NCBI GenBank assembly: GCA_000165345.1
Contig: CM000433.1
Location: 96,001-160,000 of the forward strand
DNA length: 64,000 nt
Direction of reading: 5' to 3'
A program made the translations under genes and the position numbers. The notes under the pieces are model-generated. The model ran no database searches, was not told the origin of the DNA, and worked only from the letters and a program-made list of their open reading frames with translations. Positions 7,278 to 60,328 of this stretch are shown piece after piece (within the stretch, counting starts at the first letter, position 1; every line of letters starts with the position of its first letter).

Positions 7278-7290
7278 TTTGGCGCCAAAA
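7278..7290. promoter_or_regulatory. palindromic E2F/DP-like element TTTGGCGCCAAAA in divergent promoter (eIF3a / SET gene)
   Basis: Perfect palindrome with a GGCGCC core, read directly from the sequence. It lies between two divergently transcribed genes. The same motif class recurs at most promoters in this window. Confidence 0.6.
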
Positions 7291-7908
7291 GACATCAGTA
7301 ATAGTAAATAATAACTCTGTCTCGTTATAATAATTAATTAATACTGCAACCAAAAAAAAATTCTTTTTTTTTCAGATAGAAATTTGTTTTCTGTTTTCTT
7401 TTTAAATGGACTATTTGACTTTCATGAAACCAATAAATTTCCTTATTTCCATTGTTTATTAATCTTTTTACGCTTATGAGCGAATATCGTTAATATAGTT
7501 ACTAAATATCTTTCAGTTGAATACTGAAATTTGCTATTAGATTGAACTCCTTAAATTTATCGAGATGATTATTCTCATTGAGGATATCTCACTTTTAACG
7601 CCAACTCCAATATTTATACTTATCCAAAACTTTGTTTCATGTTCATATACAAAATATTTGGCGGGTCAGCCGTTAAATTTACAATACTAAGTTACGTCAT
7701 TTATTCTGTGGGAAAAAAAAATAGTAAAATAAAGTATTGAACAATTCATGTTAATTAGTTAAAATCAATTTAAAAATTTATCAGCTAAATACTTCTAAAA
7801 TAAGTATTTATATCCTATCTGTAGAGTTTTTATCTTGCAATAATTATTTTAATCTGATAGTAAATGTATGTGAAAACATACTTAATTTGTTAACGAATAA
7901 AATTTCTA

Positions 7909-10900
7909 ATGCAAAAAAAAAAAGATGATGAAATAATAATTGAAAAAGGAGTAGAAGATGAAATTTTACATCCAATTTCAACCAATTGTACCATTGATGA
8001 AATTTCTCCACCAATTTCATTTCCATTGGACATAAGCATTAATGAGCAATTATTTGAGAGTGATTATTGGGATGATTATTTATCAGATTCTGAAACAGAC
8101 TATTGTGATAACTTTAATGTTAAAGATAAAGTTCATCCAACTAAACGAGTTTGGAATGATAACTTAGAAAGATCCTGCGGAGTATGCAATTATATAGAAA
8201 ACTACACTGAACTCTCAAATATGATAAAATGTGAAGGTTACTGCAGAAAACCATACCACTTAAAATGCGTCGGACTCGAAGAATTACCAAATACTCGATG
8301 GAAATGCCAAAACTGCATAAATAATCTTGTTTTTTGCAATATCTGCAACTCATTCAGCAATAAATCTAGCTGTAATTTTCTTAAATGTTATCATCCAATA
8401 TGTATGAGATTCTTCCACACTCAATGTTTACTTTATTATCAAAATAATATTATTTGGACCTTCAATAATTCATGTGGACAAAAGTGCGTGGCGCCTGACG
8501 AAAATGCATGTATGCACCCTGAGATAAATATAGGTGGTAAAATATTGAAAAAAATATTTGGCACAGAAAATGTGAATGAAGAAGAAGTAACTTCAAAGTT
8601 ATTGAATGAATTTGGATTTAAGTTCATTTGTGATCGTCATTATTGCTCATCTTGTAGTGACTATAATAAAAACAAGAGAATTTTGAAAAATGAAACTCAA
8701 ATTGAAATTTCAAGAAAAAAAAGAGTTATATTTAAATTAGATGATCCTGATGATTTATTCTACTGCATTAAATGCAATTCAGGGTATCACAGCCATTGTC
8801 TACATCCTGATTCTATTAAATTAGTAAATGGGGTTTGTATTTGTTATAAACATATACACGATCAAAGTGATATGATATTGGGTAGGTATAATATTAAAGA
8901 TGAAATTGACTCTAAGTTAAAAATACAGTTACAGAATTGTTTGAAGTCTAAGAATGGAAAAAGATTAAATAAGGAGCTAAAATTGGCATTAATACAAAAA
9001 ATAGTTAATCATTTAGAATCTTCAGAGTTTAATCTTAATTCATTACCATTCCAACTTCCTGGACAGTCAAAAGACTGGTTATGTATTGAAATAGAAAATC
9101 TAATTAATGAACATAATTTGAAATATGAGAGTCAAAAGGCCATAAATTTTTTACAAAATTATGGATTTACGCATATTAGAAGAAATATCTATTTAGAAAA
9201 TATTAACGACTCCCAAGATGAAGAATTTGAGACATTATCAGACACAGGTCATTCAGGAAGCAAAAATAAACAAAAAAAAGAAAAAAATATTAAAAATAAT
9301 CAAAATTTAAAGAAAAAAATATCTACATTAAATAAAAAAGATAAAATATTCAATGAAAAATGTGTTTGCAAAACAATTTGTGAAAAAGATACTTGCCAGA
9401 ATGCTGCAATGTTTATTGAATGCAATTCAAATATATGTGGGCTGGATGAAGGAATTCAGAAAAAAAATTGTATGAATAGAATATTTAATAGTAATAATAA
9501 CAAATTCTTAGATAATCAAAAGAAAATTATTTTAAAGAATTTAAAAGTTATAGATGCTGGAGAAAAAGGATTTGGTATTACTACTAATATGACTATTCCA
9601 AAAGATACTTTTATTATAGAATATGTCGGAGAAATATTAACTAGAGAAAATTACTTAAAAAGAGTTGAAAAATATAAGGAAAGAGAATTAGAATCAAGAA
9701 AAAAATCTATAATAATGGATTATTATAAAGAAGATCATGAGTTTAATGAAGACTTTGTCTTACCAAAAGATACTAGAGAAAGGCATTGGTACTGTATGGA
9801 GATTGGAAATGACTATATTATTGATAGTACAAATAAAGGAAATTTGAGTAGACTAATTAATCATAGTTGTGATCCAAATTGTATTGCGCAAAAATGGTTA
9901 GTAGGGAACGAATGTAGAGTTGGTATTTTCTCAAAAAGAGAAATTTTACCAAATGAAGAACTTACATATGATTACTCATTCACAGCTTTTGATATTGGTT
10001 TTAAATGTAAATGTAATTCTCCTTCATGCAAGGGAAGAATTGGAATAGAAAACTTTAAAGAAACTAATCAAGAACTTATTAAGAAAAGAAATTTACTATG
10101 TAAGAACACGAATATGATAAATTCATTCACAAATCTAAATAAATCATTATTTAATAATCCAATTTGTTCAGAAATAGATGAGATCTTTACGTCAAGATAT
10201 GATTATATTAATGACAATCCAGAATTTTACCATAAATTAGAAAAATATTGTGATAAAATTAGCAAATATAATCAAGTATTACATGATCATGTTACAAATG
10301 GGATTCAAATTTATCCATATGATTTCAAATTCAGAAATTCATTATATGGTTATACAAGCCTTTTATATTTTGATTCTCCTGATATAATTTCAGATTGGTA
10401 TTTTAAAAAATCAAAAAATATTGTTTTAATGAATAAACCATGGATTATTCTTCCCTTCGCATTTAATTCACGAGAATTTACTTATTTAAAATATCCATTA
10501 AATATGAATTATTTAAAAAAACAAGTATGTAAACGTTTAACTATTTCTTTGGATAAAAGCAATCCAAAACTAAGTAATAATTCAATTTTCTGGCATTTAT
10601 TTGATTTAGGGATTGGAAGTGATGAATGTTGTAATATTTGTAATAATCCCGGTACTTTAATTACGTGTGACTATTGTTATGATTCATTTCATAAATATTG
10701 CTTATATAATAATGAAATTCCAAATAATTTGAAAAGATCACGACTTTCTTATAATTATAATAAAGTTGAGGAAAAGATTAAATGTAGAAATTGTATGGAA
10801 AATGAGTTGATATCAGTTTATTGGCTTAAAACTACCTATAAGCGAAGAAGGTACAACTATTTTTTAAGACATAAATTACATTCTATTCCATTATATATTA

Positions 10901-10923: not shown

Positions 10924-11072
10924 TTTTTTTTCTTAAAAAAAAAAAAAAAAAAAAATTGAATATTTTATTAATTTATTTTGGATCTAAGTTTGAGTTATTA
11001 TTTAATTAATTATTTATCGTTGTTATGATGGCTTTCTAATACTTCTCACTTGTGTAAACTATAGTTAATGAG

Positions 11073-12116: not shown

Positions 12117-12473
12117 ATTTAAAATTAATTATTAATTAGTATAACTTTAGTTTTGTTTTTCCAATACTTAATTACACACAGGCTTTTAAAAATGTTTTGC
12201 CTTATATATGTCTCTTAGTTTAAGAACTTGTCATAAAAATTTAATGTTTCAATTCACTTTTGTCTGTTCAAAATTTCTTTTCAAAAGTGATAAAGTTGTT
12301 TGCCAGTTCTAATTTGTAAATTCAATATTAACATCCAAATAAATAATAGCTATACTTTATTATTTGAAAACTAATAATATTATTGATAAAATTCTTCTCT
12401 CCAATTAAATAAAATTAATTGATATTTACTTAAAAACTTATTGATAGACGATAAATAATACAAATACAATGTG

Positions 12474-12483
12474 TGGCGCCAAA
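12474..12483. promoter_or_regulatory. E2F-like TGGCGCCAAA element upstream of Rad51 / divergent Asn-rich gene
   Basis: GGCGCC core in a GC island within a 1.4 kb AT-rich divergent promoter. The flanking CACATG / TGCATG motifs were also read directly. Confidence 0.5.
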
Positions 12484-13320
12484 TTTCCCCACATGTGGCT
12501 TCACATGCACCGGTATAGGTAATATTGCAATGATGCATGTGGACAATTTTTAACAATGATGTAATAATTATTCAAAAAAAAAAATGTTAATTGATTTGAA
12601 GAATTTATTTATCATTTTTTAAGAAGGAACTTAAAAATTTAATAGAATGGCTATTTTGTGAAGATATTGCTATAATAATGCTTTTCAAATTTAAGAATAA
12701 AAGCTCGAACGAAGAATTGTTGTAAGAACAATATGTCTTGAAGATTTTTCTTTTAAAGAAAAAAGAAATAAAATTTCTATAAATGGAGAAAACTATGATT
12801 AATTGAATATTGAAACTTATATATCTATTTAAAAAAAAAAAAATTAGCTCTATACTCAAAATATGTGGCGCATATGCTTAAAAAATATGCATAGATAATG
12901 TGCATTATATAAAGATATGCATAATTTGTAAATATCCTATGCATTTTATGTGAGGAGAAAATATAATATTTATTAAATACAGTGAGGTACCAAATAATAA
13001 TTAAATACGAGGATAAATGATCTAAATATCTACGCACTTATTATTGGATCTCGTAAACGGGGAAAAATAAATAAATAAAATACATAAGAGGTTTGTTGAT
13101 AAAGTGAGTGAATGAAAGGAGGAATATTGAGGATTGGAAAGAAAGGAAATATTCACAATAGGAGAGATTTCAACAAATAAAGATTGTTGCGAAAATAACC
13201 ATAACTTTAATTCAAATAAAACAAAAAAAAAAAAAAATAGTTGCTAATCTATGTTTATATTAAAAAGCAGCTTTTATTGAAAGAGTTTGAATGAATCTTT
13301 GATTGAATGTTGAGATCAAA

Positions 13321-13450
13321 TAAATAAAATAACTGAAAATCAAAATTATAATTATATATATATTTATATATATATATATATATATAATTATATATACATA
13401 AATATTTATTTATATTTATATTTATATATATTTATATTTATCAATAAATG
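13321..13450. repeat. (TA)n / TTTATATTTATA simple-sequence microsatellite
   Basis: Direct reading: runs of atatatatat and tttatattta units in the promoter region. Confidence 0.8.
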
Positions 13451-13547: not shown

Positions 13548-17846
<4,299 letters not shown>

Positions 17847-18974: not shown

Positions 18975-18983
18975 TGGCGGGAA
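18975..18983. promoter_or_regulatory. E2F-like TGGCGGGAA site upstream of TPR gene
   Basis: Read directly (acacgtatggcgggaacatgc), about 70 nt upstream of the TPR gene ATG on the transcribed side. Confidence 0.4.
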
Positions 18984-19133
18984 CATGCTTTTATAAAAAT
19001 AAATATTTTTCTTAGAAAAAAATATAAGAGAATAAAGTAAATCAAGCATTGGAAATACACATATCAATACTTTATTATGCTAGAAAATCTATAATTTTAG
19101 TAACTAACAACAAATTAGAATTGGAAGAAAACG

Positions 19134-20496: not shown

Positions 20497-20512
20497 TTTT
20501 TCCCGCCAAAAC
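20497..20512. promoter_or_regulatory. E2F consensus-like TTTTTCCCGCCAAAA upstream of CAP
   Basis: Read directly. TTTCCCGCC matches the classical E2F site TTTSSCGC. It lies about 460 nt upstream of the CAP ATG. Confidence 0.5.
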
Positions 20513-20789
20513 AAAATGATATTAATTATATTAAAATAAGAGAAGAATAAGTAGAATTAGAAATTAGGAATAGAGGTTTAGGAATAGAGAGAAGAAAATA
20601 AAGAATAAAAAATGAGGATACATTTAAAAAAAATGAGAAATAAAATGTAAAAAGAGTTAATAAGATATTGATAATTATTTTAACAAAAAAATTGACATTA
20701 AAAAATACATGTTACCGCCATACGTGTATTTATGAATTATATTAAATATGAAAGGGGGGGGGGAAATAGAGAACAAAAAAGAGTCAAAT

Positions 20790-23047: not shown

Positions 23048-24133
23048 TTATAATATTTCAAACACAAAATTTGAAATTTCATTTTGTGCCTTTTTTATAT
23101 GTTTTGAATTAGTTAATAAATGATTTCCATTATTAATTTTCAAAAGTCTTAAATATCTGTTGTTTTTATTACTAAAATTATTATTTAAATTTAATAAATT
23201 TAATGACATTTGAAAAGGTACCGATTGATCATCAGTACCATGTATTAATAATATTGGATAATTAACCACTTTTTCTTTATTTTCTAATAGAAAATTATAT
23301 GTTGGAAATATATTATATGACTCCAAATAATCTCTTGAAATTAATTTTAAATCATCTTTTATTTTATTTATATGATTAATTTTAACAATTGGTATTTTTG
23401 TATTAATTTTTGTATATCCTAATTCGTTAAATTCATTTAATTGTTCATTATTAAAATCTAATATATAACTTTCTGGAATATTATCTACACATGCAATACA
23501 TATTATACCAATTAAATTATTATTTGAAATAAAGTATTCATTTTCACATTTTATATCTTTTCTTGTATAATTAGTTGAATAAGAAAAGGTTAAAAATGCA
23601 CCTGTACTTATACCAATCATTATTAATTTTGAATTTTTAAATAATATATTAGAAAAACATTCTACTATTGTTTCAATATCATACATATCTTTTGTTAACG
23701 TTTTGTCATAAAATTCACCTCTTTGAGATAATTTACCAATTCCATTAGTATTAAATGATACAAATAAAAATTTATCAATTTGACTTTTTTCCTTGAGCTT
23801 ATTTATATGGTTTTCACTTAAACATATATCCCTCATCTTTCCACAAAATCTAGATAACTTAATATTTTCATCGATTAAATCTTTAATAATTTCCAATTTA
23901 TAAGCTTCAGAATGACATAAATAATTATCTATTAGTTGAAATTCAATAGTATTCTCATTATTATTATAATCTATTGAGTAATCTGGAAATCCATGATTAT
24001 ATATATATATCAAGACTTGATCATTTTGTAAGTCCTTATTATCCTGAGTTAAATACTTTGTTAATGAGAAATTACTTTCAACATAAGTGAATATTCCATT
24101 AATTCTTAATAAATTTTTAAAATTTTGAGACAT
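23048..24133 (-). CDS. alpha/beta-hydrolase fold serine hydrolase (esterase/lipase-like), about 361 aa
   Basis: HG oxyanion motif (IYNHGFPDYS). Nucleophile elbow GXSXG (GISTGAF). C-terminal LLIHGTDDQSVP acid/His region. The track start 24151 is TTG. The first ATG is cat at 24131-24133 (MSQNFKNLL). Confidence 0.65.
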   Translation of the reverse strand: MSQNFKNLLRINGIFTYVESNFSLTKYLTQDNKDLQNDQVLIYIYNHGFPDYSIDYNNNENTIEFQLIDNYLCHSEAYKLEIIKDLIDENIKLSRFCGKMRDICLSENHINKLKEKSQIDKFLFVSFNTNGIGKLSQRGEFYDKTLTKDMYDIETIVECFSNILFKNSKLIMIGISTGAFLTFSYSTNYTRKDIKCENEYFISNNNLIGIICIACVDNIPESYILDFNNEQLNEFNELGYTKINTKIPIVKINHINKIKDDLKLISRDYLESYNIFPTYNFLLENKEKVVNYPILLIHGTDDQSVPFQMSLNLLNLNNNFSNKNNRYLRLLKINNGNHLLTNSKHIKKAQNEISNFVFEIL

Positions 24134-24143
24134 ATCAAAATAT

Positions 24144-24820
24144 TTAATCAACTGAATTCAAGTCTATAGAATTTTCAATTTTCTCAAAAATTTTAAAAAC
24201 AGGAACTAACTTAATATCTTGACCAATTTTATTATTTTTATTATTATTGTTATTATTATTATCCAAATTAAATTTTGATTTATCTTTTTTTGCACTATTA
24301 ATAATAAAACTTAATTCACTTAAAGAACTTTCTGGAATATTTGGGTGATGATTTAAAAATCTTTCAACTTGTCTATATCTTTCTTCTCTAACTTGTTCAA
24401 TTAAATTACTAATTGCCTTTTTTTCTGATAGTAAATATTTATGTATTATATAATTTGAAGTACTTATAAAAAAATCCCCTAATTTCAATAATTTGTTTGA
24501 AATATCAAATTGGCTATATTCTAATCCCTGTAATGTTGTAACTTTATTATTCTTTTTTGATTGATTAATTTGACTATATTCTCTTCTTAATGCTGATAGT
24601 GATTCTCTATTAATATTCAAATTAATATCAAGTTCAATTAACTGAAAATAAAATGAATAGAATAAATATTTTATCATGTGAAATTATTTATTTCAAATTT
24701 TGATGTTATGGTTTTAAATATTTAACTCACCTGTTGATGTTGTTGTATTATTTTATCTGCTTCAAAAGTAAGTTTCTTTAAATCACTTATATATTTACTA
24801 TTATCGGAAAAGATCTCCAT
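24144..24820 (-). CDS. hypothetical coiled-coil protein, 2 exons (about 195 aa): join(24731..24820,24144..24641) on minus
   Basis: ATG is cat at 24818-24820 (MEIFSDNSKYISDLKKL...QQHQQ). GTGAGT donor, 89-nt intron, ttttcag acceptor in phase 0, continuing LIELDINLNINRESLSALRREYSQ.... The track ORF 24144..24677 starts inside the intron. Stop at 24144-24146 is only 10 nt from the ATG of the downstream hydrolase gene. Confidence 0.5.
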
Positions 24821-24993
24821 TATAAGACTAAAGGAGATTATTTAAGTAAAGTTATAATAATATAATTAATATTATTAATTTATAAATTATTATAATTATT
24901 ATTTTTTTTTTGACTAGTTTTCTTGCATTTATTATAATAAATATATTATAAACTTTTAACTATTTAANAAAGAAAATGTTTGTGGGGACTTTA

Positions 24994-25000
24994 GGCGCCA
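24994..25000. promoter_or_regulatory. E2F-like GGCGCCA in divergent promoter (coiled-coil gene / Rpn13)
   Basis: gactttaggcgccaattcg read directly. Confidence 0.45.
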
Positions 25001-25182
25001 ATTCGTTTTTTTTATTAATTTTCAATAAAAAAACGAATATGAATAGAAAACTTATCGGATACAGATCAAATTAGAAATAAAAATAATCTACTATATCATC
25101 AATATTTTTACTTTAATTATTATCTAATTCTTTCCTATACTAAATCCTTTTAATTATTGAGAGAAACTAAAAAAAAAAAGAA

Positions 25183-25905: not shown

Positions 25906-25907
25906 AC

Positions 25908-26975: not shown

Positions 26976-27367
26976 CTTTATCGTTTTATTATTGTTATTT
27001 CTATTTTTTTTTTTTTTGGCCCTTTATTTCCAAATTCAAACAAAATTCCAACTTCTATTTAAAATAATGGGTTTTATTGTATATTATTTTAATTATGTAA
27101 TTTGAATCGTTTAATATTTAATTTATTATTATTACTTTTTTCACCCTCGCTTTTTTTTTTTTCCTCTGACCCGCAAATAAAAAAAAATAAATAATTTAGT
27201 TACCGTCCACTTTGTAAAAAATGACGTTTAAAATGCACAATTTATTTTGGCGGTAATGATGAAATACAATAAATTATATTAAGAATTAGATATTATTTAT
27301 TAAATAAGTAGGGAGAAAGAATTACTTTGAAAGTATCTTAGAATCTCTATAATAAATAAATCACGAG

Positions 27368-33999: not shown

Positions 34000-34034
34000 T
34001 TGGCGCCAATGCCATGATCACCTTTGGCGCCAAT
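34000..34034. promoter_or_regulatory. tandem pair of palindromic E2F-like elements TTGGCGCCAAT (x2, 24-bp spacing) in divergent promoter (large gene / CTU1)
   Basis: ccgttattggcgccaatgccatgatcacctttggcgccaatagctg read directly. Two GGCGCC palindromes, each flanked by CCAAT. Confidence 0.6.
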
Positions 34035-35611: not shown

Positions 35612-35687
35612 GCCTTCGTAGCATAGTCTTGGTTATTGCGTCGGTCTTGTAAACCGAAGGTCACGAGTTCGAATCTCGTCGAAGGCT
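35612..35687 (+). tRNA. tRNA-Thr (anticodon TGT)
   Basis: Hand-folded cloverleaf. Acceptor GCCTTCG/CGAAGGC (7 bp). Anticodon stem TCGGT/ACCGA with loop CTTGTAA (U33, anticodon TGT, A37). T-arm ACGAG-TTCGAAT-CTCGT. Discriminator T, followed immediately by a TTTTT Pol III terminator. Confidence 0.85.
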
Positions 35688-36167
35688 CGTTTTTACGAAT
35701 TTCTCAAATTGTTTAACCTTGGGGCCCCCCTTTCCCGCTAAAACTAAATAGCGCGTGTACAAGTAAACGTGTAATTTATTATTTAAGTATTTTTTTAATA
35801 AAAATTTTGATTTTTTTTCAAGTATTAATAAATGTTATTAAAAATATTTATTTATATAATTAAACTCAACTATATGCTTTAAATTCCCAGTTTTTTTTTA
35901 ATTTACTATCATTTAACTAAGTGAATATTTCAAAAGCACTCGCTTGTGCCGCTCAAAAATTTTATTCTTGAAAATTAAACTAATTACATGTAATACTATT
36001 CAATAATATAAATTTCCTTTTCATTTCACGAACTTATTACTTAAAAAACTATCTATAACTGTATCAATTTTTTCCTATTAATACTCTATTATTATGAATA
36101 TCATCAATAGTTATTTGAAATATACTCTATAGGGAAATTAATTGAAAAAAAAAATAACGCGAATCAT

Positions 36168-36992: not shown

Positions 36993-37563
36993 TTTTCTTT
37001 TTTCACTAAAACACTATTTTCTCCTTTAAATTGCTTTTGTTTTACTAATAATTAAATTATTTATCTATTTATCTTCCTCTTATTTATATATAACCACTTT
37101 ATTCTAAATACTATCCTATATTGTTATTATTTATATATATATATACATATATTCAATTACTGATATCCAATTAAAGAGAAAATATTATTTATACTTCCTA
37201 TTATTATCCTTTGATAATATTTTATTTATTTATTTATTTTTCTCTCTTTTATTTTTATTATTATTATTATTTTTTTTGCCTCCTTTTTTTTTAACGAGAA
37301 AAAAAAAATTCGAATTTTTCCGATAATTTATATTAAAAAATAATTTCGGCGGGAACTCGTGGGGATTTGACCGCCATTTCACTATATAGGTATCGAGATC
37401 TTTATAAGTAATGAAAATAATTAATTAATTAGTTACATGTAAAAAAAAATTATAATTTTTTTTTTTTCTTTTTTGTGTTCTTTAAAATTATTATAAATGC
37501 AATTTTTTATTATTTATATTTATTTAAAAAATAATAATAATATTAATAAAAATAATAATAATA

Positions 37564-39520: not shown

Positions 39521-39864
39521 AATAATCATGATAATAATAAATTTGATGAATTATAATAAACAGTAATTATTACTAAGTTATTATTGTTTTTTTTTTTTTA
39601 TCATTTCCATTTTATCTTAAAATTACGTGTCATGTTAAATTTTAATGTCAAAATAAAACAGCCCGCCTTTTTGTTTAATACTTGTAATAATTTAATATTA
39701 TTCTTAAAATAATAATAAAATTATTACAAGCTTCCCACATTTTTTTTATTACCAATAATTTAGTTAAAATAATCCATAATATGTTAAAATTTTTTTAACA
39801 TATTTATATATATATGTATATATGAATCCATATATTTAAACATTTAATATACTTGCTATAAATT

Positions 39865-45758: not shown

Positions 45759-45886
45759 CTTTATAATTTGGCTTATAATTTAAAAATTCTCCTTATTTTA
45801 AATTTTTTTCTATTTAAATTTTTTCATTAATATATTTTTTAAAAAATTCTGCATGCATTTCTACATGCACTTTTGTCCACATAGAC

Positions 45887-45895
45887 TTTGGCGCC
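45887..45895. promoter_or_regulatory. E2F-like TTTGGCGCC element next to TGCATGCA (ApiAP2-like) in promoter of MYND gene
   Basis: ctgcatgcatttctacatgcacttttgtccacatagactttggcgcctgatg read directly. TGCATGCA is at 45850-45857. Confidence 0.5.
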
Positions 45896-46316
45896 TGATG
45901 TGTTGACTATTCACGATATATTTGGAGTAATTTCTAATAATGGTCATAATAATCATATAAAATAGCTTATGAAATAATTTAATAATAGTTTATATCATGG
46001 TTTTATTTAGAGTTGAAGATTAGCTGAGAGTTTTGAGAGGTGAAGAATAATGTAATATAAATTACTAAAATATTCTATTTTATTAAATTGCGACAAATCG
46101 AAATAATTTGGGAAAACAAATAATTTATCAATATTAAGAATAAATTCTTTTATAAAATTTCTTAATATTTTTCTTAAGTCCTTATCGGCAGTTATGAATA
46201 ATCCCGGACGTAAAGTAAATGAAATAAAATCTAATTCAAAAATGACTAATAAAAATGGGAAAAACCCCTAACCTAATAAAATATTATCTATTTAAATATG
46301 AATTTTTTAATCAAAT

Positions 46317-46724
46317 ATGATCTTTAAGACAAAAAATCAATCCAAACTTACGCAAAAAAAGTCAAATACAGAAAGCAATCACGGAAAATGTAATAATCTA
46401 ATTGAAATAAGTAAAGATATGGACAATTCTACATATAAAAAATTTATCAATCGAAAAAGAAATGTATCTATATTATTAATAGTAATTATCTTTTTATTTT
46501 TCTGGTTTTTAATCATTAATAAGCAAGAGCTTTTTTCTAATTTAATATTTTTGAAAGAAAAATTTAATTTGCTTGCAAATAAGTTTAATACAAGTTTAAA
46601 AATATTTCAAAATTATCATTTATTCAGCTTTGATGAGAATTTAACTAAAACTCTTATTGGAAAAATATATGAGCTTTTTAACAATATATATTTAACCTTC
46701 GAGAAATGTTCAAATTTTCATTAA
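46317..46724 (+). CDS. small ORF with one predicted TM segment (135 aa); may be an upstream ORF or a mis-framed N-terminus of the next gene
   Basis: ATG at 46317. Hydrophobic stretch ILLIVIIFLFFWFLII. Terminates in three consecutive stops (TAA TAG TAA), 16 nt before the ATG of the next, larger ORF in a different frame. Confidence 0.25.
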   Translation: MIFKTKNQSKLTQKKSNTESNHGKCNNLIEISKDMDNSTYKKFINRKRNVSILLIVIIFLFFWFLIINKQELFSNLIFLKEKFNLLANKFNTSLKIFQNYHLFSFDENLTKTLIGKIYELFNNIYLTFEKCSNFH

Positions 46725-46740
46725 TAGTAAACTTAGTTTA

Positions 46741-49725
46741 ATGTATATATGGGCCAAGTATATTATTAATTTATCAATTTCAAGTATGAAATTTGAATAC
46801 AAAAAGCTTTCAAGAAAGTACCAAATAATAATGCTTACAAATGCAATCATTCATAGAATGATTCAAATGATTGTTGCCAAATACTTTGATTTAATCCAAG
46901 GAATCAAGCATTTTATTATTAATTCTTCAAACTATACGTTTTATTTTACAACAATATCAATATTGGTGATAAATGTGATAATTTGGGATAATATTATAAT
47001 GAAAAATATTGTTGAGGATTATAGACTTAATAATTTGAAGATTGTTACTAGTACTATTTCAAGTCTGCTAACAGTATTTTATCTATCAAATATTGAAAAA
47101 TATACTAATCACTTCATTGGGAAGTATAATAATTATATTTATGGATTTTGTTCAAGAGCCTTCTTACAATCCGACAGCAAACAAAATAACGAATTTGGTT
47201 ATTATAGTAAGAGGAAATTTACATTTATTTCAAATGAATGGTGGAAGATTCACAAACTTGAAAGTGTATTTAAAGGAGTAGAAATTATTAACGAAATTAA
47301 GAAAAGGTCCCACCCGGAAATAACAACTGAAATTACAAATAAAGTCTCTATATTTAACTTTGAATTTCTTAAAAAATTAAAATATAAAGGACAAATTTCA
47401 AAAGACATTTGTAATTTTTTAATAGATGGGAATCAAGAAATACGAATAATAACTAGAATTCTCATTTTTTCTATCAGCACATTAAGTGTCACTTATATAT
47501 TATATAGTGAACATAAAAGAATCAACATAAACAATAATATCACCTCCCACTCAAAAATTTATACATTTTTTACAGTTATTTCAGGTTTGATTATTCCTAT
47601 ATTATTAAACAATATACAGAAATTTAGTGCATATAAAGAACAAGGACAGGTTATTTTTTTATTATTGTTTTTATCATTAAAACTAATAACCAACCATAAG
47701 CATTTTCTAATGTTAATATTCGAGTTGATTAACAATATAAAATCTAAATTTACTTCAGAAAATAACTTTGAAAAAATAATTCTACAAAACCAAGATAGGG
47801 AAGTATTACCAGAAGAAATTAAAGATATTAAGAATAGTTTGCCACAAATTAATGAAAACTCTTCATTATCAAGAGAAACAAATAAAAAAACTAGCTTATT
47901 ATTAAAAAGTACTAAAACCCATTCAAACTCTTCAAGTTGTGAAAATAAATACAAAAACATGAAAAATCACTCAAATCAAAGAAAGCAACAATCATCCAGA
48001 GATATAAGCAAGACCAGAATAAAGTATTTGAATGATATAATTCGTACAAAAATAACAAGTAAGAATGGAATTCAAGAAATATTTGATAATGTCACAGATA
48101 TCAAATCAATTCAAGAAAAGAATTCATATTTATCTTTTTTTGCCAAAACAATAGAAATATTTAAAAAGATTATAATTTTTTTAAAGGACTTGATAATTAA
48201 TATATTTAATGAAAAAATTGTGGGTTCTATATTTTACTTACTATTCAAAGATTGTAGAGGAATAGTATTAAGCTCATTTGATCATTACAAAATAAATAAA
48301 TATATTCAAGAAAGTAAGATCTCAATGGAATTAAAAGAAGAGTTACTTAGAAGCATGACACTTTGCTACACAAATATTGGAAATCCACAAATTATTAGAT
48401 CAATCAATCTTTCAAAAAAAGATTTAATACAAGATTTAGAGAATTTGAAGATCATTTTGCCAAATACACTGGTAATGGAAAAATTAAAATCAATTCAAGA
48501 TAAATCATCTTTAAGTCAAATTGAAACAATATTGCAACCATTTTCCGGAATTAATTCACTTGAGGAAAAGATTAATGCAGAAATTCAGTATTACTTAATA
48601 TTAAATTCAATTAATATATTATCAGATAGTTGTGAAGCCATTAAAGAATCATGCAAAGCAATTATTAATTCTGAAAGCCTTATTGAATTAATTAATAATA
48701 TTACAAATCATGATTTAGATAAGATTAATTTACTGTTAAATACAAATATGGATTACAATATTATTTCAAGCATTATTAAATCTGTAGTATTAATGGATGA
48801 AAATAAAGCAGGTATTTGGAATAGATTTTCACTAATAACTAATTCAATAAGTAAAGTTCATTTAGAACTTGTATGTAAATTAAATAAATTAAAAGATATT
48901 GAGATTAATGAAATATTTATTCAATGGAATATATTAAGAGCAGGATTGAAATATATTTTGCATCAGATAAAAAATAATCGTAAATCTTATGAAGATATTT
49001 ATATGGGAGGATTACCGTTACATACGTTACAAATGGCATTACATTATTTAAATACTTCAGCAAGAAAAACATCCGACTTAGTTCAAGAATCTATTATAGC
49101 TTGTAGCGAATTCTGTTTATACTTTAATTTAAAAACCATTGAAGAGTTACACGAATTAAATAGAACTTCTTTAGGTCAATCAAAGTTATTTGAATTATGC
49201 AAGAGAGATTGTAATGATATTTTAAGATTAATTCAAACAATAAAAAGTGTATTAGAAGAATTATGTGAAAATAAAATAAGAATTGATGGAAAAGAAATTG
49301 ATATTAGTTATTTATCATCAATGTTGCCTGCCGTAACATTAAATTCGGAGCATAAGTATTGTAGAAAGGAAACAGAATCCAGTTGTAAGCTACATGGTAA
49401 AGGATTACATGACACATTTAGATTGTATGCTGAAGGAAATTTTCCTGCAGTTACAAACACTATTCAGCCTATCCAATCTAAAAGAGAGACTTCAAAATTT
49501 ATTCCAGAAAGGCCAAGAAGTTCAATTCCAAGGGAAGCCTCAGGGAATAAAGAAGGAATCTCAAGTATTAACACGGAGGAAAAAAATCACATTGGTAAAA
49601 ACAATGAGTCATTTTTAAATCAAACAGGACTAAGAAAACCAAAAGAAATTATTAGAAAAGAAGGAAATAATAATAATGAAGAGAATTTACCTTTTTTACC
49701 ATCAACCCCGGATGAGTTGATTTAA
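46741..49725 (+). CDS. large hypothetical protein with N-terminal multi-pass hydrophobic region (994 aa)
   Basis: ATG at 46741 verified. Several hydrophobic helices in the first 330 aa (FTTISILVINVIIW, LLTVFYLSNI, IITRILIFSISTLSVTYILY, FFTVISGLIIPILL). A long Ile/Asn/Lys-rich soluble region follows. No catalytic motif recognised. Confidence 0.5.
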   Translation: MYIWAKYIINLSISSMKFEYKKLSRKYQIIMLTNAIIHRMIQMIVAKYFDLIQGIKHFIINSSNYTFYFTTISILVINVIIWDNIIMKNIVEDYRLNNLKIVTSTISSLLTVFYLSNIEKYTNHFIGKYNNYIYGFCSRAFLQSDSKQNNEFGYYSKRKFTFISNEWWKIHKLESVFKGVEIINEIKKRSHPEITTEITNKVSIFNFEFLKKLKYKGQISKDICNFLIDGNQEIRIITRILIFSISTLSVTYILYSEHKRININNNITSHSKIYTFFTVISGLIIPILLNNIQKFSAYKEQGQVIFLLLFLSLKLITNHKHFLMLIFELINNIKSKFTSENNFEKIILQNQDREVLPEEIKDIKNSLPQINENSSLSRETNKKTSLLLKSTKTHSNSSSCENKYKNMKNHSNQRKQQSSRDISKTRIKYLNDIIRTKITSKNGIQEIFDNVTDIKSIQEKNSYLSFFAKTIEIFKKIIIFLKDLIINIFNEKIVGSIFYLLFKDCRGIVLSSFDHYKINKYIQESKISMELKEELLRSMTLCYTNIGNPQIIRSINLSKKDLIQDLENLKIILPNTLVMEKLKSIQDKSSLSQIETILQPFSGINSLEEKINAEIQYYLILNSINILSDSCEAIKESCKAIINSESLIELINNITNHDLDKINLLLNTNMDYNIISSIIKSVVLMDENKAGIWNRFSLITNSISKVHLELVCKLNKLKDIEINEIFIQWNILRAGLKYILHQIKNNRKSYEDIYMGGLPLHTLQMALHYLNTSARKTSDLVQESIIACSEFCLYFNLKTIEELHELNRTSLGQSKLFELCKRDCNDILRLIQTIKSVLEELCENKIRIDGKEIDISYLSSMLPAVTLNSEHKYCRKETESSCKLHGKGLHDTFRLYAEGNFPAVTNTIQPIQSKRETSKFIPERPRSSIPREASGNKEGISSINTEEKNHIGKNNESFLNQTGLRKPKEIIRKEGNNNNEENLPFLPSTPDELI

Positions 49726-49748
49726 TTCAATTCAATTTTGAAAAGAAA

Positions 49749-50375: not shown

Positions 50376-50420
50376 CCTTTATAACAAATAATTGCGAAAA
50401 TTTAAACATTCTTTTTTTTT

Positions 50421-50500
50421 TTTAATAATTACCGGTGACACGTAATTTAAAAAAAAAAAATTTCCACAATATTACGTGTTTACATGTAATACCGGTATTG
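50421..50500. promoter_or_regulatory. GC-containing inverted-repeat element (ACCGGTGACACGTAAT ... ATTACGTGTTTACATGTAATACCGGTA) in divergent promoter
   Basis: Read directly: ACCGGT and CACGTA half-sites repeated in inverted orientation about 45 nt apart, flanking an A12 run. Sits between the FAM210 gene and the Arp gene. Confidence 0.4.
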
Positions 50501-50672
50501 AAAAAAAATAAATTAGAATTTTGTGAATTTTTTTAATAATTTTTTTTCAATTTAAAATTGGTTTAAATTATCAGCAGAGGAAAAAGGAAAAAAATAAATA
50601 AATAAATCTTCAAAGGAAAAATATTAACAAGTTAGTAAATGTACTTAACAATTTTGAGAAACAAAATATTTA

Positions 50673-51929: not shown

Positions 51930-51931
51930 CT

Positions 51932-55896: not shown

Positions 55897-56050
55897 TGAT
55901 AATTAATCCGCCCCTCAAACAAATAATCACGAGGCTAAAATTGAAAATTAAAATATAAATATAGAATATATATTTATATCACTAGTTTACATCAAAAGTC
56001 AAACTTTTCAAGTTAAATAATAATAGAAAAAAAAATTGTAATGACGTGTT

Positions 56051-56060
56051 TTCGGCGCCA
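56051..56060. promoter_or_regulatory. E2F-like TTCGGCGCCA in divergent promoter (LeuRS / YggS)
   Basis: aatgacgtgttttcggcgccaccacaatt read directly. Confidence 0.5.
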
Positions 56061-56214
56061 CCACAATTAGTTACTACTTAAATATATTTAATGTCATGTG
56101 GATGGTATTTATTAAATAATAATAATATTAACAATAATATGTTGAATGAATATAATAAACCAGCACAATTTAAATACAATATATAGATTCTGAGGGGAAA
56201 ATATTTTATTTAAA

Positions 56215-56931
56215 ATGTCAGAAAATGAAGTTATTGATAACTATATGAAAATTAAGAACCAAATTAAAGAGCTTTGCTCAGGTTTTGAAAGTTTTCCCGA
56301 ACTATTGGTTGTAAGTAAGTACCAGAGTGAGGAGAATATCAAGTTACTGCATGAAAAAACCGACCAAAAGATATTTGGAGAAAATTATGTACAGGAGTTG
56401 ATGGAAAAATCTAGGAATTTACCCAAATCAATTAAATGGCATTTTATAGGTCACTTGCAAAGTAATAAAGTTAAAACTTTATTATCTATTGACAACTTGG
56501 AAGTTATAGAAACAGTTGATTCAATAAAACTTGCGCAAGTGTTAAATAAAGAATGTCAGTTACAAGGAAGATCAGTTTTGAAAGTAATGATACAGGTAAA
56601 GACTTCAAATGAAGTCAACAAATCAGGAGCTCAAATTTCTGAAGCTATAAATATTTTTGAATATATAATTTCTGAGTGTAGGAATCTCAAATTTCAAGGT
56701 TTAATGACAATGGGAGATTCAGATGTTAACCTTACTAGTGAATGTTTTAATAAGATGGTAAATTTGAGAAATATTATCAATGAAAAGATTTCAAAGAATG
56801 GCAACTATGATCAGTCTATTGAATGTAGGCTCAGTATGGGAACTACAAGAGATATGGAAATAGCAATAAAAAATCATACGAATGAAGTAAGAATTGGAAG
56901 TGCAATTTTTGGAGATAAAAAGAAAGGTTAA
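56215..56931 (+). CDS. PLPBP: pyridoxal-phosphate homeostasis protein (YggS/PLPBP/PROSC family), 238 aa
   Basis: ATG at 56215 verified. Family motifs LLVVSKYQ (PLP-Lys), FGENYVQEL, WHFIGHLQSNKVK, RLSMGTTRDMEIAI, RIGSAIFG. Confidence 0.8.
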   Translation: MSENEVIDNYMKIKNQIKELCSGFESFPELLVVSKYQSEENIKLLHEKTDQKIFGENYVQELMEKSRNLPKSIKWHFIGHLQSNKVKTLLSIDNLEVIETVDSIKLAQVLNKECQLQGRSVLKVMIQVKTSNEVNKSGAQISEAINIFEYIISECRNLKFQGLMTMGDSDVNLTSECFNKMVNLRNIINEKISKNGNYDQSIECRLSMGTTRDMEIAIKNHTNEVRIGSAIFGDKKKG

Positions 56932-57066
56932 AGTTTAAGTCCTGATAATAAATATAGATATTTACGTTAAAGACAATAAAATTTATCAACAAGTTTACAT
57001 TAATATAAAATTATAGATATATCTTATAAAGCATAATAAATATATGAGGGGGGAAAGTAAATTTGA

Positions 57067-58374: not shown

Positions 58375-58486
58375 TTCATATAGAGTCTTTTCCTATATTT
58401 TTAATTTGGGAGGAAAAAACTCGTTTTTTCCTATTTTATTCTTCCTTATTCGCCGATAGTTAACTATCCAATTTTTGACTAAACTA

Positions 58487-58501
58487 TGGCGCCGGCGGCA
58501 A
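58487..58501. promoter_or_regulatory. extended GC palindrome-like element TGGCGCCGGCGGCAA in divergent promoter (bromodomain gene / alveolin)
   Basis: Read directly. Followed by CCGCC and GATGCATGC (near-ApiAP2 motif) within 50 nt. Confidence 0.5.
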
Positions 58502-58854
58502 TTTCCATGCCCACACTTTTTTATTACCGCCTGTCCGATGCATGCTTGAAAAAATTAGTGGAAATTGAAAATAGTGCCTGAAGAGGAGAAATAAATTATT
58601 CTTCCCAACTGTCATCTTTGTTTAAAACAAGAGCAGACTAGGAAGCCTACTTTTTTCTTTGATTGATCCCTGAAAAGTAAAATAAAGGAACAAAGTAAAT
58701 CTAAAGCTTATAAATATTGCAAATAAAAAATATTATTCGAAATTTTTATAATAATATACACCCATTAGAAATTGTATCATAAATTTAGCAATCTTCGAGG
58801 TGAAAAAAAAAATACTTCTTCTTACAGTAACATATTGTAGCCCACCCAAAGAAG

Positions 58855-60124
58855 ATGGAGAATGGTAAGTTTAAATATTTAGAAAAATTACATTTAAGAT
58901 TATAACTTTTAATTTACTATTTGTAGATATTGACTCAAAAGGAATGCATTTACCTCCGAATATTTCTCTTGTGCCTCCAGAAATACCAACCAAATTGATG
59001 GCACAGGGAGTATTTCATGTAAGTTAATCATTTTGAACATGTAATGTGCAATTTATTCTTAATTTTAGGAGAGAGTTGTGGAAAAGCCTAAGGTTATTAA
59101 TGAAGAAGAAATTGTTGAAATAGAAACAATAGAGTACCGAGAAAAGTTGGTCGAAGTCCCAGAGATTATTTACAAAGAAAACATTATAAAAGTTCCAAAA
59201 ATTGAAATACAGGAAAGAATTATAGAAGTTCCTAAAATTAATGAAGAAGAGAAAATAGTTTATGTACCAGAAGTGAGATATGTGGAAAAATTTGTGGAAA
59301 AGAAAGAAAGAGTATTAAAGGAAAAAACAGTTTTTGTTCCAAGAGTTGAAGTTCAAGAGAGAATCGTAGAGGTGCCTAAAATAGTAATCGAAGAGAAAAT
59401 TGTTGAAGTTCCACAAATTCAGTACAAAGAAGTTATTATGGAAAAGATCTTAGAAATACCACAAATACAAGAAGAAATTGTGTGGAAAGATGTGGTTGTT
59501 CCAAACATTCAGCCAAGATATATTGAAACTGAAAAAATCGTAGAAATTCCTGTTGTACAAACAATAGAAAAGTTGGTACATGCGTCAGTTCCTCAGTATA
59601 AAATGATTAAACAAGATATCAATGTCCCAATCGTAGATATTAAAACAGTTCCAAAAGATTGTGTATTAGAAAAATTGAAATATGTGCCTGTTCCTGTTGA
59701 TAGATATCAAGAAGTACAGGTGCCAAAATATGTACTTAAAACTGTTGAAGTTCCTGTTCCTGTTCCAATTGAAAAAATTGTTGAAGAAGAAGTACCGGTA
59801 CCAATATCTGTAGAAAAAGTTGTACATGTGCCAAAAATAATACAGAGGCATGTACCGCGTACATTTAATGTTCCAATACCTGTATATTCAGATGCATTGA
59901 TAGAATCAAGGGTAGGACTAATGCCATATAATACATTTTTATCTATTAATCATGAATCAGCAGAAGAATCATCTCAGCAATTAACACCACCAAATAATAT
60001 TAGTCATATTCAACAAAATATACAGGCTAGAAGTAGTTATGGAACTGGAGTCGAAGTTAGTTCTAGCATCTCATTATTCAAATCCCCGGAAAGAGAAGCA
60101 GAAGATAGAGATTACTTAAATTAG
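58855..60124 (+). CDS. alveolin / IMC1-family cytoskeletal protein with EKIVEVP-type repeats, 3 exons: join(58855..58864,58927..59018,59069..60124), about 385 aa
   Basis: Iterated alveolin repeats (EKLVEVPEIIYKENIIKVPKIEIQERIIEVPKI...ERIVEVPKIVIEEKIVEVPQIQYKEV...VEVPVPVPIEKIVEEEVPVP). The track ORF start is GTG. Upstream, two in-phase GTAAGT introns connect a 92-nt exon (DIDSKGMHLPPNISLVPPEIPTKLMAQGVFH) and a 10-nt first exon (ATGGAGAATG). An alternative start is the in-frame ATG in exon 2 (MHLPPN...). Confidence 0.6.
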
Positions 60125-60320
60125 ATTAGTCAAAACCACCTTACATCTAATACTAATATCTAAAGAATTTAAAATAATGCTATTTTTAATTATAATAAAT
60201 ACTTTTATCCAAAAACTCTTATATTTAACTCTTTATATTTAGCCAATTTTTCTTTTTATAATAAATCATTACGTATTTTGCAACGCCATGCATCTTCCCC
60301 CAAAATAAAAACTTGCTAAG

Positions 60321-60328
60321 TTGGCGCC
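60321..60328. promoter_or_regulatory. E2F-like TTGGCGCC upstream of His-rich protein gene
   Basis: gcaacgccatgcatcttcccccaaaataaaaacttgctaagttggcgccctattg read directly. Includes a CCATGCAT near-ApiAP2 motif. Confidence 0.4.

Follow-up and report, generated by a model that had tools for sequence, protein, structure and literature searches.

The 64,000-nucleotide stretch of DNA analyzed in this study (the window) has a GGCGCC/GGCGGG element ahead of almost all of its genes. The element is genuine: its occurrence departs strongly from randomness, and it is conserved between species. Earlier publications describe it as an E2F-like motif, the most common one upstream of Cryptosporidium parvum genes, which means that the finding itself is known. 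The window, whose assignment to Cryptosporidium in an initial annotation proved right, is a part of C. parvum chromosome 5 (99.99% identity to chromosome 5 of C. parvum IOWA-ATCC, about 117–181 kb), and is simply a local sample of a genome-wide pattern. Our contribution is a set of controls for one region of 64 kb, using convergent and shuffled spacers, together with cross-species footprinting in two syntenic blocks.

Thirty genes were tabulated with the help of publicly available gene calls for the identical assembly, and sites were defined as GGCGS on either strand. Of the 18 spacers containing 5′ ends (10,946 bp in total, 21% GC), 17 were occupied by at least one site (27 sites altogether). 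The earlier claim that the motif is present at essentially every divergent promoter holds with the exception of the divergent spacer FAM210|ARP (50376–50672), in which no GGCGS site was found. All 15 of the sites listed in the initial annotation were present within 2 nt of the stated positions, but nine intergenic sites (193, 218, 7660, 12867, 20715, 22248, 39663, 55908 and 58527) had been missed, as had the copies inside genes (6050 and the palindromes at 6010 and 8490). The intergenic sites, followed by the intragenic copies, are:

192–224, minus strand: two GGCGG-type sites, ACCGCCACA (192–200, adjoining ACACGTA) and GCCGCCAC (217–224), upstream of the gene at 642–1931 (plus strand)
2966–2975, minus strand: TTCCCGCCTT, tandem spacer hyp204|eIF3a, hyp204 ATG at 367 bp, eIF3a stop codon at 134 bp
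7278–7290, unstranded: TTTGGCGCCAAAA, full palindromic E2F-type site, divergent spacer eIF3a|SET
7657–7665, plus strand: TTTGGCGGG, asymmetric, second site of the eIF3a|SET spacer, SET ATG at 247 bp
12474–12483, unstranded: TGGCGCCAAA, 361 bp upstream of Rad51
12866–12872, plus strand: TGGCGCA, weak variant, Rad51|hyp1432 spacer
18975–18985, plus strand: TGGCGGGAACA, preceded by ACACGTA, TPR gene ATG 72 bp downstream
20497–20511, minus strand: TTTTTCCCGCCAAAA, full asymmetric E2F-type site, tandem spacer CAP_C|RING
20713–20721, minus strand: TACCGCCAT followed by ACGTGT, CAP_C|RING spacer, located 73 bp beyond the RING stop codon
22246–22266, unstranded: TACCGCCAC and TGGCGCCA with 12 bp between them, divergent spacer RING|hyp102
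24993–25001, unstranded: AGGCGCCAA, divergent spacer hyp177|Rpn13, GTGGGG 5 bp upstream
27245–27256, plus strand: TTTTGGCGGTAA, divergent spacer GDPD|TRM10, TRM10 ATG at 117 bp
34000–34034, unstranded: two exact copies of TTGGCGCCAAT, 24 bp from centre to centre, divergent spacer Symplekin/PP-loop gene, PP-loop gene ATG (34130) 101–126 bp downstream
37344–37378, unstranded: inverted pair TTTCGGCGGGAA and GACCGCCATT with GTGGGG between them, divergent spacer VatD|Fringe
39660–39669, minus strand: AGCCCGCCTT, tandem spacer Fringe|hyp1002, downstream ATG at 200 bp
45887–45896, unstranded: TTTGGCGCCT, divergent spacer zfMYND|hyp1135, with TGCATGCA 30 bp away at 45850
55906–55914, minus strand: ATCCGCCCC, divergent spacer aaRS|YBL036C
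56050–56060, unstranded: TTTCGGCGCCA, same spacer, YBL036C ATG at 158 bp
58487–58533, unstranded: composite module of TGGCGCCGGCGGCAA (overlapping double site), GCCCACAC and TTACCGCCTG, divergent spacer AnkBromo|IMCp, followed by GATGCATGCT at 58538–58547
60321–60329, unstranded: TTGGCGCCC, tandem spacer IMCp|hyp654
63019–63030, plus strand: AATGGCGGGCAA, thioredoxin-like gene (63111–63713) 87 bp downstream
6008–6056, unstranded: pair TTGGCGCCAT and TACCGCCTA within the eIF3a coding sequence, outside the promoter set and possibly acting as an antisense or internal promoter
8489–8496, unstranded: TGGCGCCT within the SET gene, retained by C. ubiquitum and C. canis at the corresponding codon

Dinucleotide-preserving shuffles of the window gave an expectation of 0.25 for GGCGCC (maximum 2), against 12 observed copies. 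The same excess was seen for TGGCGCCA (6 observed, 0.03 expected), GGCGG (22 and 4.0) and TTGGCG (19 and 3.7), while TGGCGCC(A) and TTGGCGCC came top among the non-low-complexity words in a de novo k-mer ranking. When each 5′ spacer was subjected to 2,000 dinucleotide shuffles, 1.9 ± 1.3 GGCGS sites (maximum 7) were obtained in 1.8 occupied spacers (maximum 6), and the frequency in matched shuffled spacers, a comparison proposed in the initial annotation, is thus far below the 27 sites observed. An artefact of chance or composition, created by GC-containing words in AT-rich DNA, is refuted by these shuffle counts together with the cross-species enrichment, and we regard it as practically impossible: although the control set of convergent spacers is small (2.1 kb), none of the 2,000 matched shuffles approached the observed counts, the enrichment was clearly reproduced by five of the six further species, and the motif has been found independently on a genome-wide scale (PMC3734150).

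Another possibility is that the sites have no protein specificity and, as short GC islands in AT-rich spacers, affect the structure of chromatin or DNA (by nucleosome exclusion, methylatable CpGs or replication origins). They contain CpG, are embedded in spacers of 79% AT upstream of almost all genes whatever their function, and the motif coincides with published ATAC-seq peaks (bioRxiv 10.1101/2025.01.17.633476). However, GC hexamers of identical composition were not enriched in the window (GGGCCC 1, GCCGGC 2, CCGCGG 0, GCGCGC 1 and CGGCCG 0, against 12 for GGCGCC), and the enrichment of GGCGCC is therefore sequence-specific. Moreover, the motif is present in just 24 of the 42 short GC islands of the 5′ spacers, the other 18 being different sequences, which contradicts the previous description of the sites as the only GC islands. 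Given that the exact sequence, beyond its GC content, is also conserved between species, a purely structural role is very improbable.

The sites are restricted to spacers containing 5′ ends. No GGCGS was found in the convergent (3′/3′) spacers (0 in 2,078 bp; 5.1 expected at the 5′ rate, P≈0.006), and genic sequence, although richer in GC than the 5′ spacers (26.5% versus 21%), contained only 9 sites in 50,966 bp (0.18/kb versus 2.47/kb, i.e. 14-fold fewer). The convergent spacers thus bear out the view that the motif is almost never seen at 3′ ends, but the tandem spacers do not, since 5 of their 7 sites are closer to the upstream stop codon than to the downstream ATG. In tandem spacers, promoters were assigned by gene order rather than from mapped transcription start sites. 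In the divergent spacers, where many sites were first described as lying exactly between the paired genes, the sites are seldom central (relative position 0.24 to 0.87), and the nearest ATG is at a median of 187 bp.

Two syntenic 21-kb blocks were compared with those of six other Cryptosporidium species. The enrichment was clear in C. ubiquitum (7 sites observed versus 0.3 expected), C. canis (17 versus 3.7), C. felis (23 versus 5.5), C. bovis (17 versus 3.3) and C. andersoni (7 versus 0.5), and weak in C. muris; the pooled density was 0.47 sites/kb in convergent spacers and 2.28/kb in 5′ spacers (P=0.0035). In the gastric species (C. muris and C. andersoni) palindromic sites were fewer and GCGCC(T/A) variants more numerous. 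Of 75 core bases, 38 (51%) were invariant, compared with 15.6 ± 4.7 (about 21%) for random windows of the same spacers; a count of 38 was reached in none of 10,000 permutations. These alignments indicate that the sites are under purifying selection across species.

The same conservation was visible at individual loci. In the four-species alignment of the eIF3a|SET spacer, an invariant run was 7 nt or longer in just two places, one of them TTTTGGCGCC. The region 12440–12520 forms a conserved module that includes the TGGCGCCAAA site, CCCCAC (G-box) and ACATGCACCGGTAT. Within it, C. parvum, C. ubiquitum, C. canis and C. felis share TGGCGCCACA and the adjacent blocks without change, and C. bovis nearly so. 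The AnkBromo|IMCp module aligns over its entire length in C. parvum, C. canis and C. felis (with a variant in C. bovis), and the core of TTTCGGCGCCA is invariant in the same three species. Other sites were retained in part of the set: GGCGGGA of hyp204|eIF3a in C. ubiquitum and C. canis, CCGCCA(N)ACGT of the TPR gene in C. ubiquitum, C. canis and C. felis, TTTTGGCGGGAA of CAP_C|RING in C. ubiquitum, the paired site of RING|hyp102 in C. canis, C. felis and C. bovis, GGGCGGA of aaRS|YBL036C in C. canis, and TTTCCCGCCAT of the thioredoxin-like gene in C. felis. The orthologous Rad51|hyp1432 spacers carry GCGCC-type sites at similar positions.

Two variants occur in the window, (i) the palindromic TTTGGCGCCAAA and (ii) the asymmetric TTTGGCGG(G/T)AA. 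The flanks are E2F-like, with T at −1 to −3 and A at +1 to +3 (15/20, 12/20 and 13/20 at the half-site flanks), and the full sites are therefore TTTGGCGCCAAA and GGCGG(G/T)AA. The variants TTTGGCGCCAAA and TTTGGCGGGAA match motif 3 (DTTGSCGCCH) and motif 4 (TTTGGCGGGAAV) of Oberstaller et al. 2013, the motifs with the strongest over-representation upstream of C. parvum genes (PMC3734150), which confirms the E2F-like identity proposed in the initial annotation. The two classes, lumped together there, are distinct in vertebrate in-vitro work: human E2F homodimers select GGCGCC in SELEX, TTGGCGGGAA is preferred in the presence of DP1, and E2F reads GGC while DP reads GGG (PMC4686757).

We consider it probable that the sites are E2F/DP-type cis-regulatory sites of C. 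parvum, bound by dimers and activating promoters, often in both directions. They would lie in nucleosome-free promoter regions common to divergent genes or ahead of tandem genes, where winged-helix E2F and DP proteins of the parasite would bind as dimers and assist in the opening or activation of RNA polymerase II promoters, in many cases bidirectionally; by the vertebrate model, E2F-type domains would read the GGC half-sites and the DP-type domain the GGG half-site. Candidate proteins are encoded by the E2F genes cgd1_1560 and cgd6_1430 and the DP genes cgd7_3650 and cgd8_1850, known from the literature. Both the identity of the binding protein and the activation of transcription are what we infer from the sites.

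Alternatively, the sites may be a genuine selected promoter element of another protein (an uncharacterized zinc-finger, Myb or ApiAP2 protein), with the resemblance to E2F sites being coincidental. A 2025 review counts few regulatory components of the genus as experimentally confirmed (PMC12246861). Transcripts of E2F and DP are most abundant early in the asexual phase, while motif-bearing clusters peak at any time point (PMC3734150; bioRxiv 10.1101/2025.01.17.633476). The six sites of the GGCGGT(AA) subclass do not fit the GGCGGG consensus and may be those of a different factor (GGCGGTAA: 4 observed versus 0.07 expected). In addition, the sites recur in fixed modules (12440–12520 and 58480–58560) with the ApiAP2-bound TGCATGCA and GTGGG motifs; these apicomplexan ApiAP2 sites (including the G-box GTGGGG) are likewise short and over-represented upstream, but differ in sequence. 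Nevertheless, both variants, flanks included, coincide with two experimentally defined types of E2F site, the GGCGCC motif is classed as non-AP2, apart from the motifs of the PBM-tested AP2 domains (PMC4117751), and, among the apicomplexan genera studied, both E2F and DP survive in Cryptosporidium alone (PMC3734150; PMC12246861), which means that the parasite has the proposed binding protein at its disposal. Another binder is thus unlikely, and E2F/DP is the preferred reading.

With respect to the motifs of Oberstaller et al. 2013, organism, sequences and upstream location are all the same, and their near-ubiquity (upstream of 161/200 co-expression clusters; Oberstaller et al. 2013; PMC4117751) shows no essential difference from the 27/30 genes found here. 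The motif was noted earlier by Bankier et al. 2003, and E2F-like motifs were previously reported upstream of replication and glycolysis genes (per PMC3734150; PMC12246861). In sporozoite ATAC-seq (Xiao et al. 2025, bioRxiv 10.1101/2025.01.17.633476) the E2F motif tops the regulatory peaks and occurs once in each accessible upstream peak. Over half of the peaks are annotated as bidirectional promoters, in agreement with the shared bidirectional regulation suggested initially, the comparison with the window being made at the level of the motif. The E2F motifs which that study places between tandem genes (inter-gene regions of polycistrons) match our tandem-spacer sites near upstream stop codons.

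The sites resemble vertebrate and plant E2F/DP sites (TTTSGCGCSAAA; GGCGCC for homodimers; TTGGCGGGAA for E2F/DP; PMC4686757) in core, T/A flanks, palindromic and asymmetric classes, and location in promoters that are often bidirectional. Canonical E2F regulons, however, consist of cell-cycle and DNA-replication genes under Rb-family pocket proteins, whereas most canonical E2F partners, e.g. Rb-family proteins, are reported absent from C. parvum (PMC3734150), and here the motif precedes almost every gene. The expression coherence that the initial annotation proposed as a test is weak, and no cell-cycle coherence was seen among the target genes of the window. Since 27 of the 30 genes, functionally unrelated, carry a site, the element looks like a near-universal, general component of C. 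parvum promoters rather than a cell-cycle-specific switch.

The window is AT-rich (18–33% GC per 2 kb), with tightly packed long ORFs. It is 99.99% identical to approx. 117.1–181.1 kb of the C. parvum IOWA-ATCC sequence CP044418.1, and an exact-protein look-up showed that its Rad51 and the C. parvum Iowa II protein EAK88173.1 are identical. The first homology match (C. bovis Rad51, 95%) and the low GC had pointed to a species like C. bovis or C. ryanae, which the look-up and a megablast comparison excluded. Eukaryotic Pfam matches were obtained for ORFs encoding eIF3a, a SET/PHD methyltransferase, Rad51, Rpn13, symplekin, an actin-related protein, an Ank+bromodomain protein and an apicomplexan inner-membrane-complex (IMC) protein. 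The public gene calls of the IOWA-ATCC assembly, moved to window coordinates with start and stop codons checked, gave a map of 30 protein genes and one tRNA-Thr. At 46317-46741 the window differs by a 1-bp indel from IOWA-ATCC and from two further assemblies, and its ORF is thereby shortened to 994 aa, versus the 1135 aa annotated from the ATG at 46317; this is probably a homopolymer sequencing difference between assemblies.

Convergent genes are only 2–23 bp apart at several places (25906-25907, 51930-51931, 49726-49748), and therefore their 3′ UTRs must overlap the neighboring gene; this extreme compaction is also the reason why the 3′-spacer control described below is so small. The 840-bp convergent spacer between the PP-loop and V-ATPase D genes is unusually long and higher in GC because it contains the tRNA-Thr gene (anticodon TGT; 35612-35688, + strand). 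Scans for tRNAs and Rfam families yielded this tRNA alone; it has no relation to the E2F-like motif, and its spacer contains no E2F-like site.

Whole-window counts were compared with dinucleotide-preserving shuffles of the window. GGCGCC occurred 12 times versus 0.25 in the shuffles, TGGCGCCA 6 versus 0.03, GGCGG 22 versus 4.0 and TTGGCG 19 versus 3.7, and in an unbiased k-mer ranking TGGCGCC(A) and TTGGCGCC led the words that were not of low complexity. For the analysis of spacers, a site was defined as GGCGS on either strand. The 18 spacers containing a gene 5′ end (11 divergent, 6 tandem and the left window edge; 10,946 bp, 21% GC) held 27 sites distributed over 17 of them. In 2,000 dinucleotide shuffles per spacer, the number of sites was 1.9 ± 1.3 and never exceeded 7, and 1.8 spacers (at most 6) were occupied. 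No site was found in the 2,078 bp of convergent (3′/3′) spacers, most of them tiny, although the 5′ rate predicts 5.1 (P≈0.006). The comparison with 3′ spacers and shuffles, which the initial annotation had named as decisive, thus came out in its favor. Site density was 2.47 per kb in 5′ spacers, 0 per kb in convergent spacers and 0.18 per kb in genes, which are GC-richer (26.5%). This is the location expected of E2F-type sites, i.e. 5′ regulatory DNA with depletion in coding and 3′ regions, and it was observed again in other species.

These counts also bear on the alternative that the sites reflect a sequence-independent effect of GC content or chromatin, which should enrich any word of the same composition equally. 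Control hexamers composed like GGCGCC occurred only 0–2 times and were not enriched, and CGCG was absent from the 5′ spacers. Furthermore, just 24 of the 42 short GC islands of the 5′ spacers carry the motif, the others being different sequences (including GTGGGG/CCCCAC, TGCACCGGT and a G10 run); the initial view that the sites are the only GC islands was therefore mistaken, and a general GC or chromatin effect is very unlikely. Taken together, the shuffle, spacer, hexamer and k-mer results confirm an enrichment far beyond chance, and chance as the source of the pattern is extremely improbable.

All of the sites listed in the initial annotation were found, with offsets of at most 2 nt, although it had overlooked nine sites between genes and, within genes, the copies at 6010, 6050 and 8490. 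Its statement that nearly every divergent promoter has a site holds with one exception, the spacer between the FAM210 and ARP genes (50376–50672). Many of the sites were also said to lie exactly between divergent genes; central placement is rare, with relative positions ranging from 0.24 to 0.87. The median distance from a site to the nearest ATG, which was taken as the reference instead of the transcription start site, was 187 bp (interquartile range 130–364). The claimed near-absence from 3′ ends is borne out by the convergent spacers (just 2.1 kb) but not by the tandem ones, in which five of seven sites are closer to the stop codon upstream than to the ATG downstream.

The intergenic sites fall into two classes, 10 being palindromic (GGCGCC) and 17 asymmetric (GGCGGG 7, GGCGGT 6, GGCGGC 2, GGCGGA 1 and GGCGCA 1), and their cores agree with the E2F/DP core [C/G]GCGC[G/C] or GGCGGG. 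The flanks are likewise E2F/DP-like (TTT-core-AAA, with T prevailing 5′ and A prevailing 3′ of the core): among the 20 palindromic half-sites, T occupies positions −3/−2/−1 in 13, 12 and 15 cases and A occupies +1/+2/+3 in 15, 12 and 13, and A is present at +1/+2 in 10 and 13 of the 17 asymmetric sites, against a spacer background of approx. 40%. The resulting consensus sequences are TTTGGCGCCAAA (palindromic) and TGGCGG(G/T)AA (asymmetric). Several copies have a distinctive arrangement or location.

Duplicated, overlapping and intragenic E2F-like sites
34000–34034: tandem duplicate, two exact 11-mers TTGGCGCCAAT 24 bp apart, 101–126 bp upstream of the annotated ATG of the PP-loop gene
58487–58501: overlapping double site, TGGCGCC/GGCGGC
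6008-6056: intragenic pair in eIF3a, two sites 40 bp apart
8489-8496: intragenic site in the SET gene, TGGCGCCT

In order to examine conservation, two syntenic blocks of approx. 21 kb each were compared, one around Rad51 (C. ubiquitum, C. canis, C. felis, C. bovis and C. muris) and the other around the Ank-bromodomain gene (C. canis, C. felis, C. bovis and C. andersoni). Gene order was kept in both, and enrichment in 5′ spacers over matched shuffles was again clear in five of the six other species.

E2F-like sites in the 5′ spacers of other Cryptosporidium species (observed; shuffle mean)
C. ubiquitum: 7; 0.3
C. canis: 17; 3.7
C. felis: 23; 5.5
C. bovis: 17; 3.3
C. andersoni: 7; 0.5
C. muris: 3; 0.6

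Pooled over species, the density was 2.28 sites per kb in 5′ spacers and 0.47 per kb in convergent spacers (P=0.0035). Individual sites appear as footprints in alignments of orthologous spacers. In the spacer between SET and eIF3a, where 13% of the columns are invariant, just two runs of 7 nt or more are invariant, and TTTTGGCGCC is one of them. Of the 75 core bases in nine spacers, 38 (51%) were invariant, compared with 15.6 ± 4.7 in random windows of the same spacers, and none of 10,000 permutations reached 38. The sites are therefore under purifying selection, and this constraint also argues against a GC or chromatin effect. MAFFT alignment of three tandem spacers (RING/CAP_C, CAP_C/TPR and eIF3a/hyp204) gave no invariant run of at least 7 nt; their sites are kept in every species, yet the alignment is unreliable, and the figure of 51% is therefore probably an underestimate. 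In the sampled spacers of the gastric species C. muris and C. andersoni, the GGCGCC palindrome is rare and GCGCC(T/A) or CCGCC variants predominate, which suggests that the preferred site has drifted between clades.

The FAM210/ARP spacer (50376-50672), the sole divergent spacer without an E2F-like site, has orthologs which lack the site in C. canis and C. bovis and contain it in C. felis and C. andersoni. Instead of the site, the spacer of the window has an imperfect inverted repeat composed of TACCGGTGACACGTAAT (50430–50446) and ATTACGTGT…TACCGGTA (50471–50497).

Two composite modules with E2F-like sites are conserved. Upstream of Rad51 (12440-12520, approx. 75 bp), TGGCGCCACA is accompanied by TGCATG, ACCGGTGCATGT and GTGGGG blocks, and this module is invariant also in C. 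ubiquitum and still recognizable in C. bovis. The spacer between the Ank-bromodomain and IMC protein genes (58480-58560) contains the series AGCATGCATC – GGCGGTAATAA – GTGTGGGCA – CCGCCGGCGCCA, which is kept in C. parvum, C. canis and C. felis and occurs as a variant in C. bovis. Each module spans approx. 70–80 bp and combines an E2F-like site with a G-box-like GTGGG(G) and an AP2-type TGCATG(CA); conservation of both extends over C. parvum, C. canis and C. felis and, for the most part, C. bovis.

Two further words were enriched in the window: TACCGGT (6 versus 0.9) and ACACGTA (11 versus 0.9 expected; positions 198, 18968, 20721, 39624, 50438 and 50473, plus five genic matches). Three copies of ACACGTA adjoin E2F-like sites to form ACACGTATGGCGG / CCGCCAYACGT, and this composite is kept in four species upstream of the TPR gene. 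The 25 motifs of Oberstaller et al. 2013 (PMC3734150) do not include ACACGTA, and a text search for it returned primer sequences only.

The motif itself is already well documented in C. parvum and is rediscovered here. The sites fit motifs 3 and 4 of Oberstaller et al. (DTTGSCGCCH and TTTGGCGGGAAV), E2F-like sequences which are the most over-represented motifs upstream of C. parvum genes, and that study acknowledges that they had been noticed before, on chromosome 6 and in front of replication and glycolysis genes (PMC3734150); the match to the E2F consensus and to a known upstream motif, asserted in the initial annotation, is thus correct. The E2F motif was reported in 161 of 200 co-expression clusters (PMC4117751), and it stands out above all other motifs in the regulatory ATAC-seq peaks of sporozoites, over half of which were annotated as bidirectional (bioRxiv 10.1101/2025.01.17.633476). 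PMC11337648 employs an "E2F promoter" just as a weak driver and does not mention the motif. Since both the motif and its interpretation were published in 2003–2013 and reinforced by the ATAC-seq data of 2025, the window holds no new kind of element.

The sites are probably E2F/DP-type binding sites that act as near-universal, often bidirectional promoter elements, and the interpretation in the initial annotation was essentially right. This reading is based here on the enrichment, the restriction to 5′ spacers, the E2F-like flanks and the cross-species constraint, and in the literature on the factor genes and the association with open chromatin. C. parvum has the E2F genes cgd1_1560 and cgd6_1430 and the DP genes cgd7_3650 and cgd8_1850 (PMC12246861; bioRxiv 10.1101/2025.01.17.633476), and among the apicomplexan genera studied, Cryptosporidium alone has retained E2F and DP (PMC12246861). 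E2F/DP would be the binder of the sites, and binding would activate transcription. Recognition by some other protein is unlikely. The GGCGCC/GGCGGG core does not correspond to the ApiAP2 motifs from protein-binding microarrays (TGCAT, CACACA, G[T/C]GGGG), AP2-type motifs being present as separate elements in the site-bearing spacers, and the E2F motif has been classed as non-AP2, apart from the motifs of the ApiAP2 domains tested on such arrays (PMC4117751).

The sites do not behave as a canonical cell-cycle regulon. A site is present in the upstream spacer of 27 of the 30 genes, which are functionally unrelated (among them eIF3a, SET, Rad51, Rpn13, GDPD, TRM10, symplekin, V-ATPase D, an aminoacyl-tRNA synthetase and an IMC protein) and do not form a cell-cycle or DNA-replication set; in addition, motif-bearing clusters peak at any time point, and most E2F partner proteins are reported missing in C. 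parvum (PMC3734150). These observations lower the claim of a canonical cell-cycle E2F regulon, but not that of an E2F-type site.

The tandem-spacer sites close to upstream stop codons resemble the E2F motifs that Xiao et al. 2025 found between the genes of polycistronic transcripts (bioRxiv 10.1101/2025.01.17.633476). A peptidase-S9-like gene (23048–24133, − strand) and the 177-aa gene upstream of it (24144–24677, − strand) are separated by 10 bp (24134-24143), and by 8 bp in C. muris (locus L012, 816-823). One E2F-like site (24994) lies ahead of the pair, and the two genes may form a dicistron of the type that these authors reported. As for the intragenic copies, TGGCGCCT of the SET gene occupies the same codon position in C. 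ubiquitum and C. canis (Val/Met-Ala-Pro, with Ala = GCG). Because the E2F motif ranks first among the motifs upstream of C. parvum antisense lncRNAs (PMC7840661), the copies at 6008-6056 and 8489-8496 may be internal or antisense lncRNA promoters.

The two site classes have counterparts among human E2F sites: GGCGCC is the SELEX site of the E2F homodimer and TTGGCGGGAA is preferred when DP1 is present, the E2F domain reading the half-site GGC and the DP domain GGG (PMC4686757). We tentatively propose, as a possibility that is not the likelier one, that an E2F-type element has been re-purposed from a cell-cycle switch to a general RNA polymerase II promoter element with two site classes and fixed AP2/G-box/E2F modules. 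Such an element would define the promoters of the majority of RNA polymerase II genes and make chromatin accessible to either side. An E2F–E2F dimer would recognize GGCGCC, and E2F–DP would recognize GGCGG(G/T)AA, both acting in a species-conserved arrangement with TGCATGCA (AP2) and GTGGG (G-box), and the conserved intragenic copies (6008–6056 and 8489–8496) would be antisense lncRNA promoters. If this proposal is true, its novelty would lie solely in the split into dimer classes and in the arrangement of the modules.

Cryptosporidium is a leading cause of childhood diarrhoea, and its transcriptional control is poorly understood. To the published record the present analysis adds a clean local test against matched shuffles and 3′ spacers, together with evidence of purifying selection on single sites in several Cryptosporidium species, and the conserved modules upstream of Rad51 and between the Ank-bromodomain and IMC protein genes would be well suited to promoter mutagenesis. 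The E2F-like motif is the best candidate for the main promoter element of Cryptosporidium, a genus distinguished by E2F/DP factors that are absent from the other apicomplexans studied.
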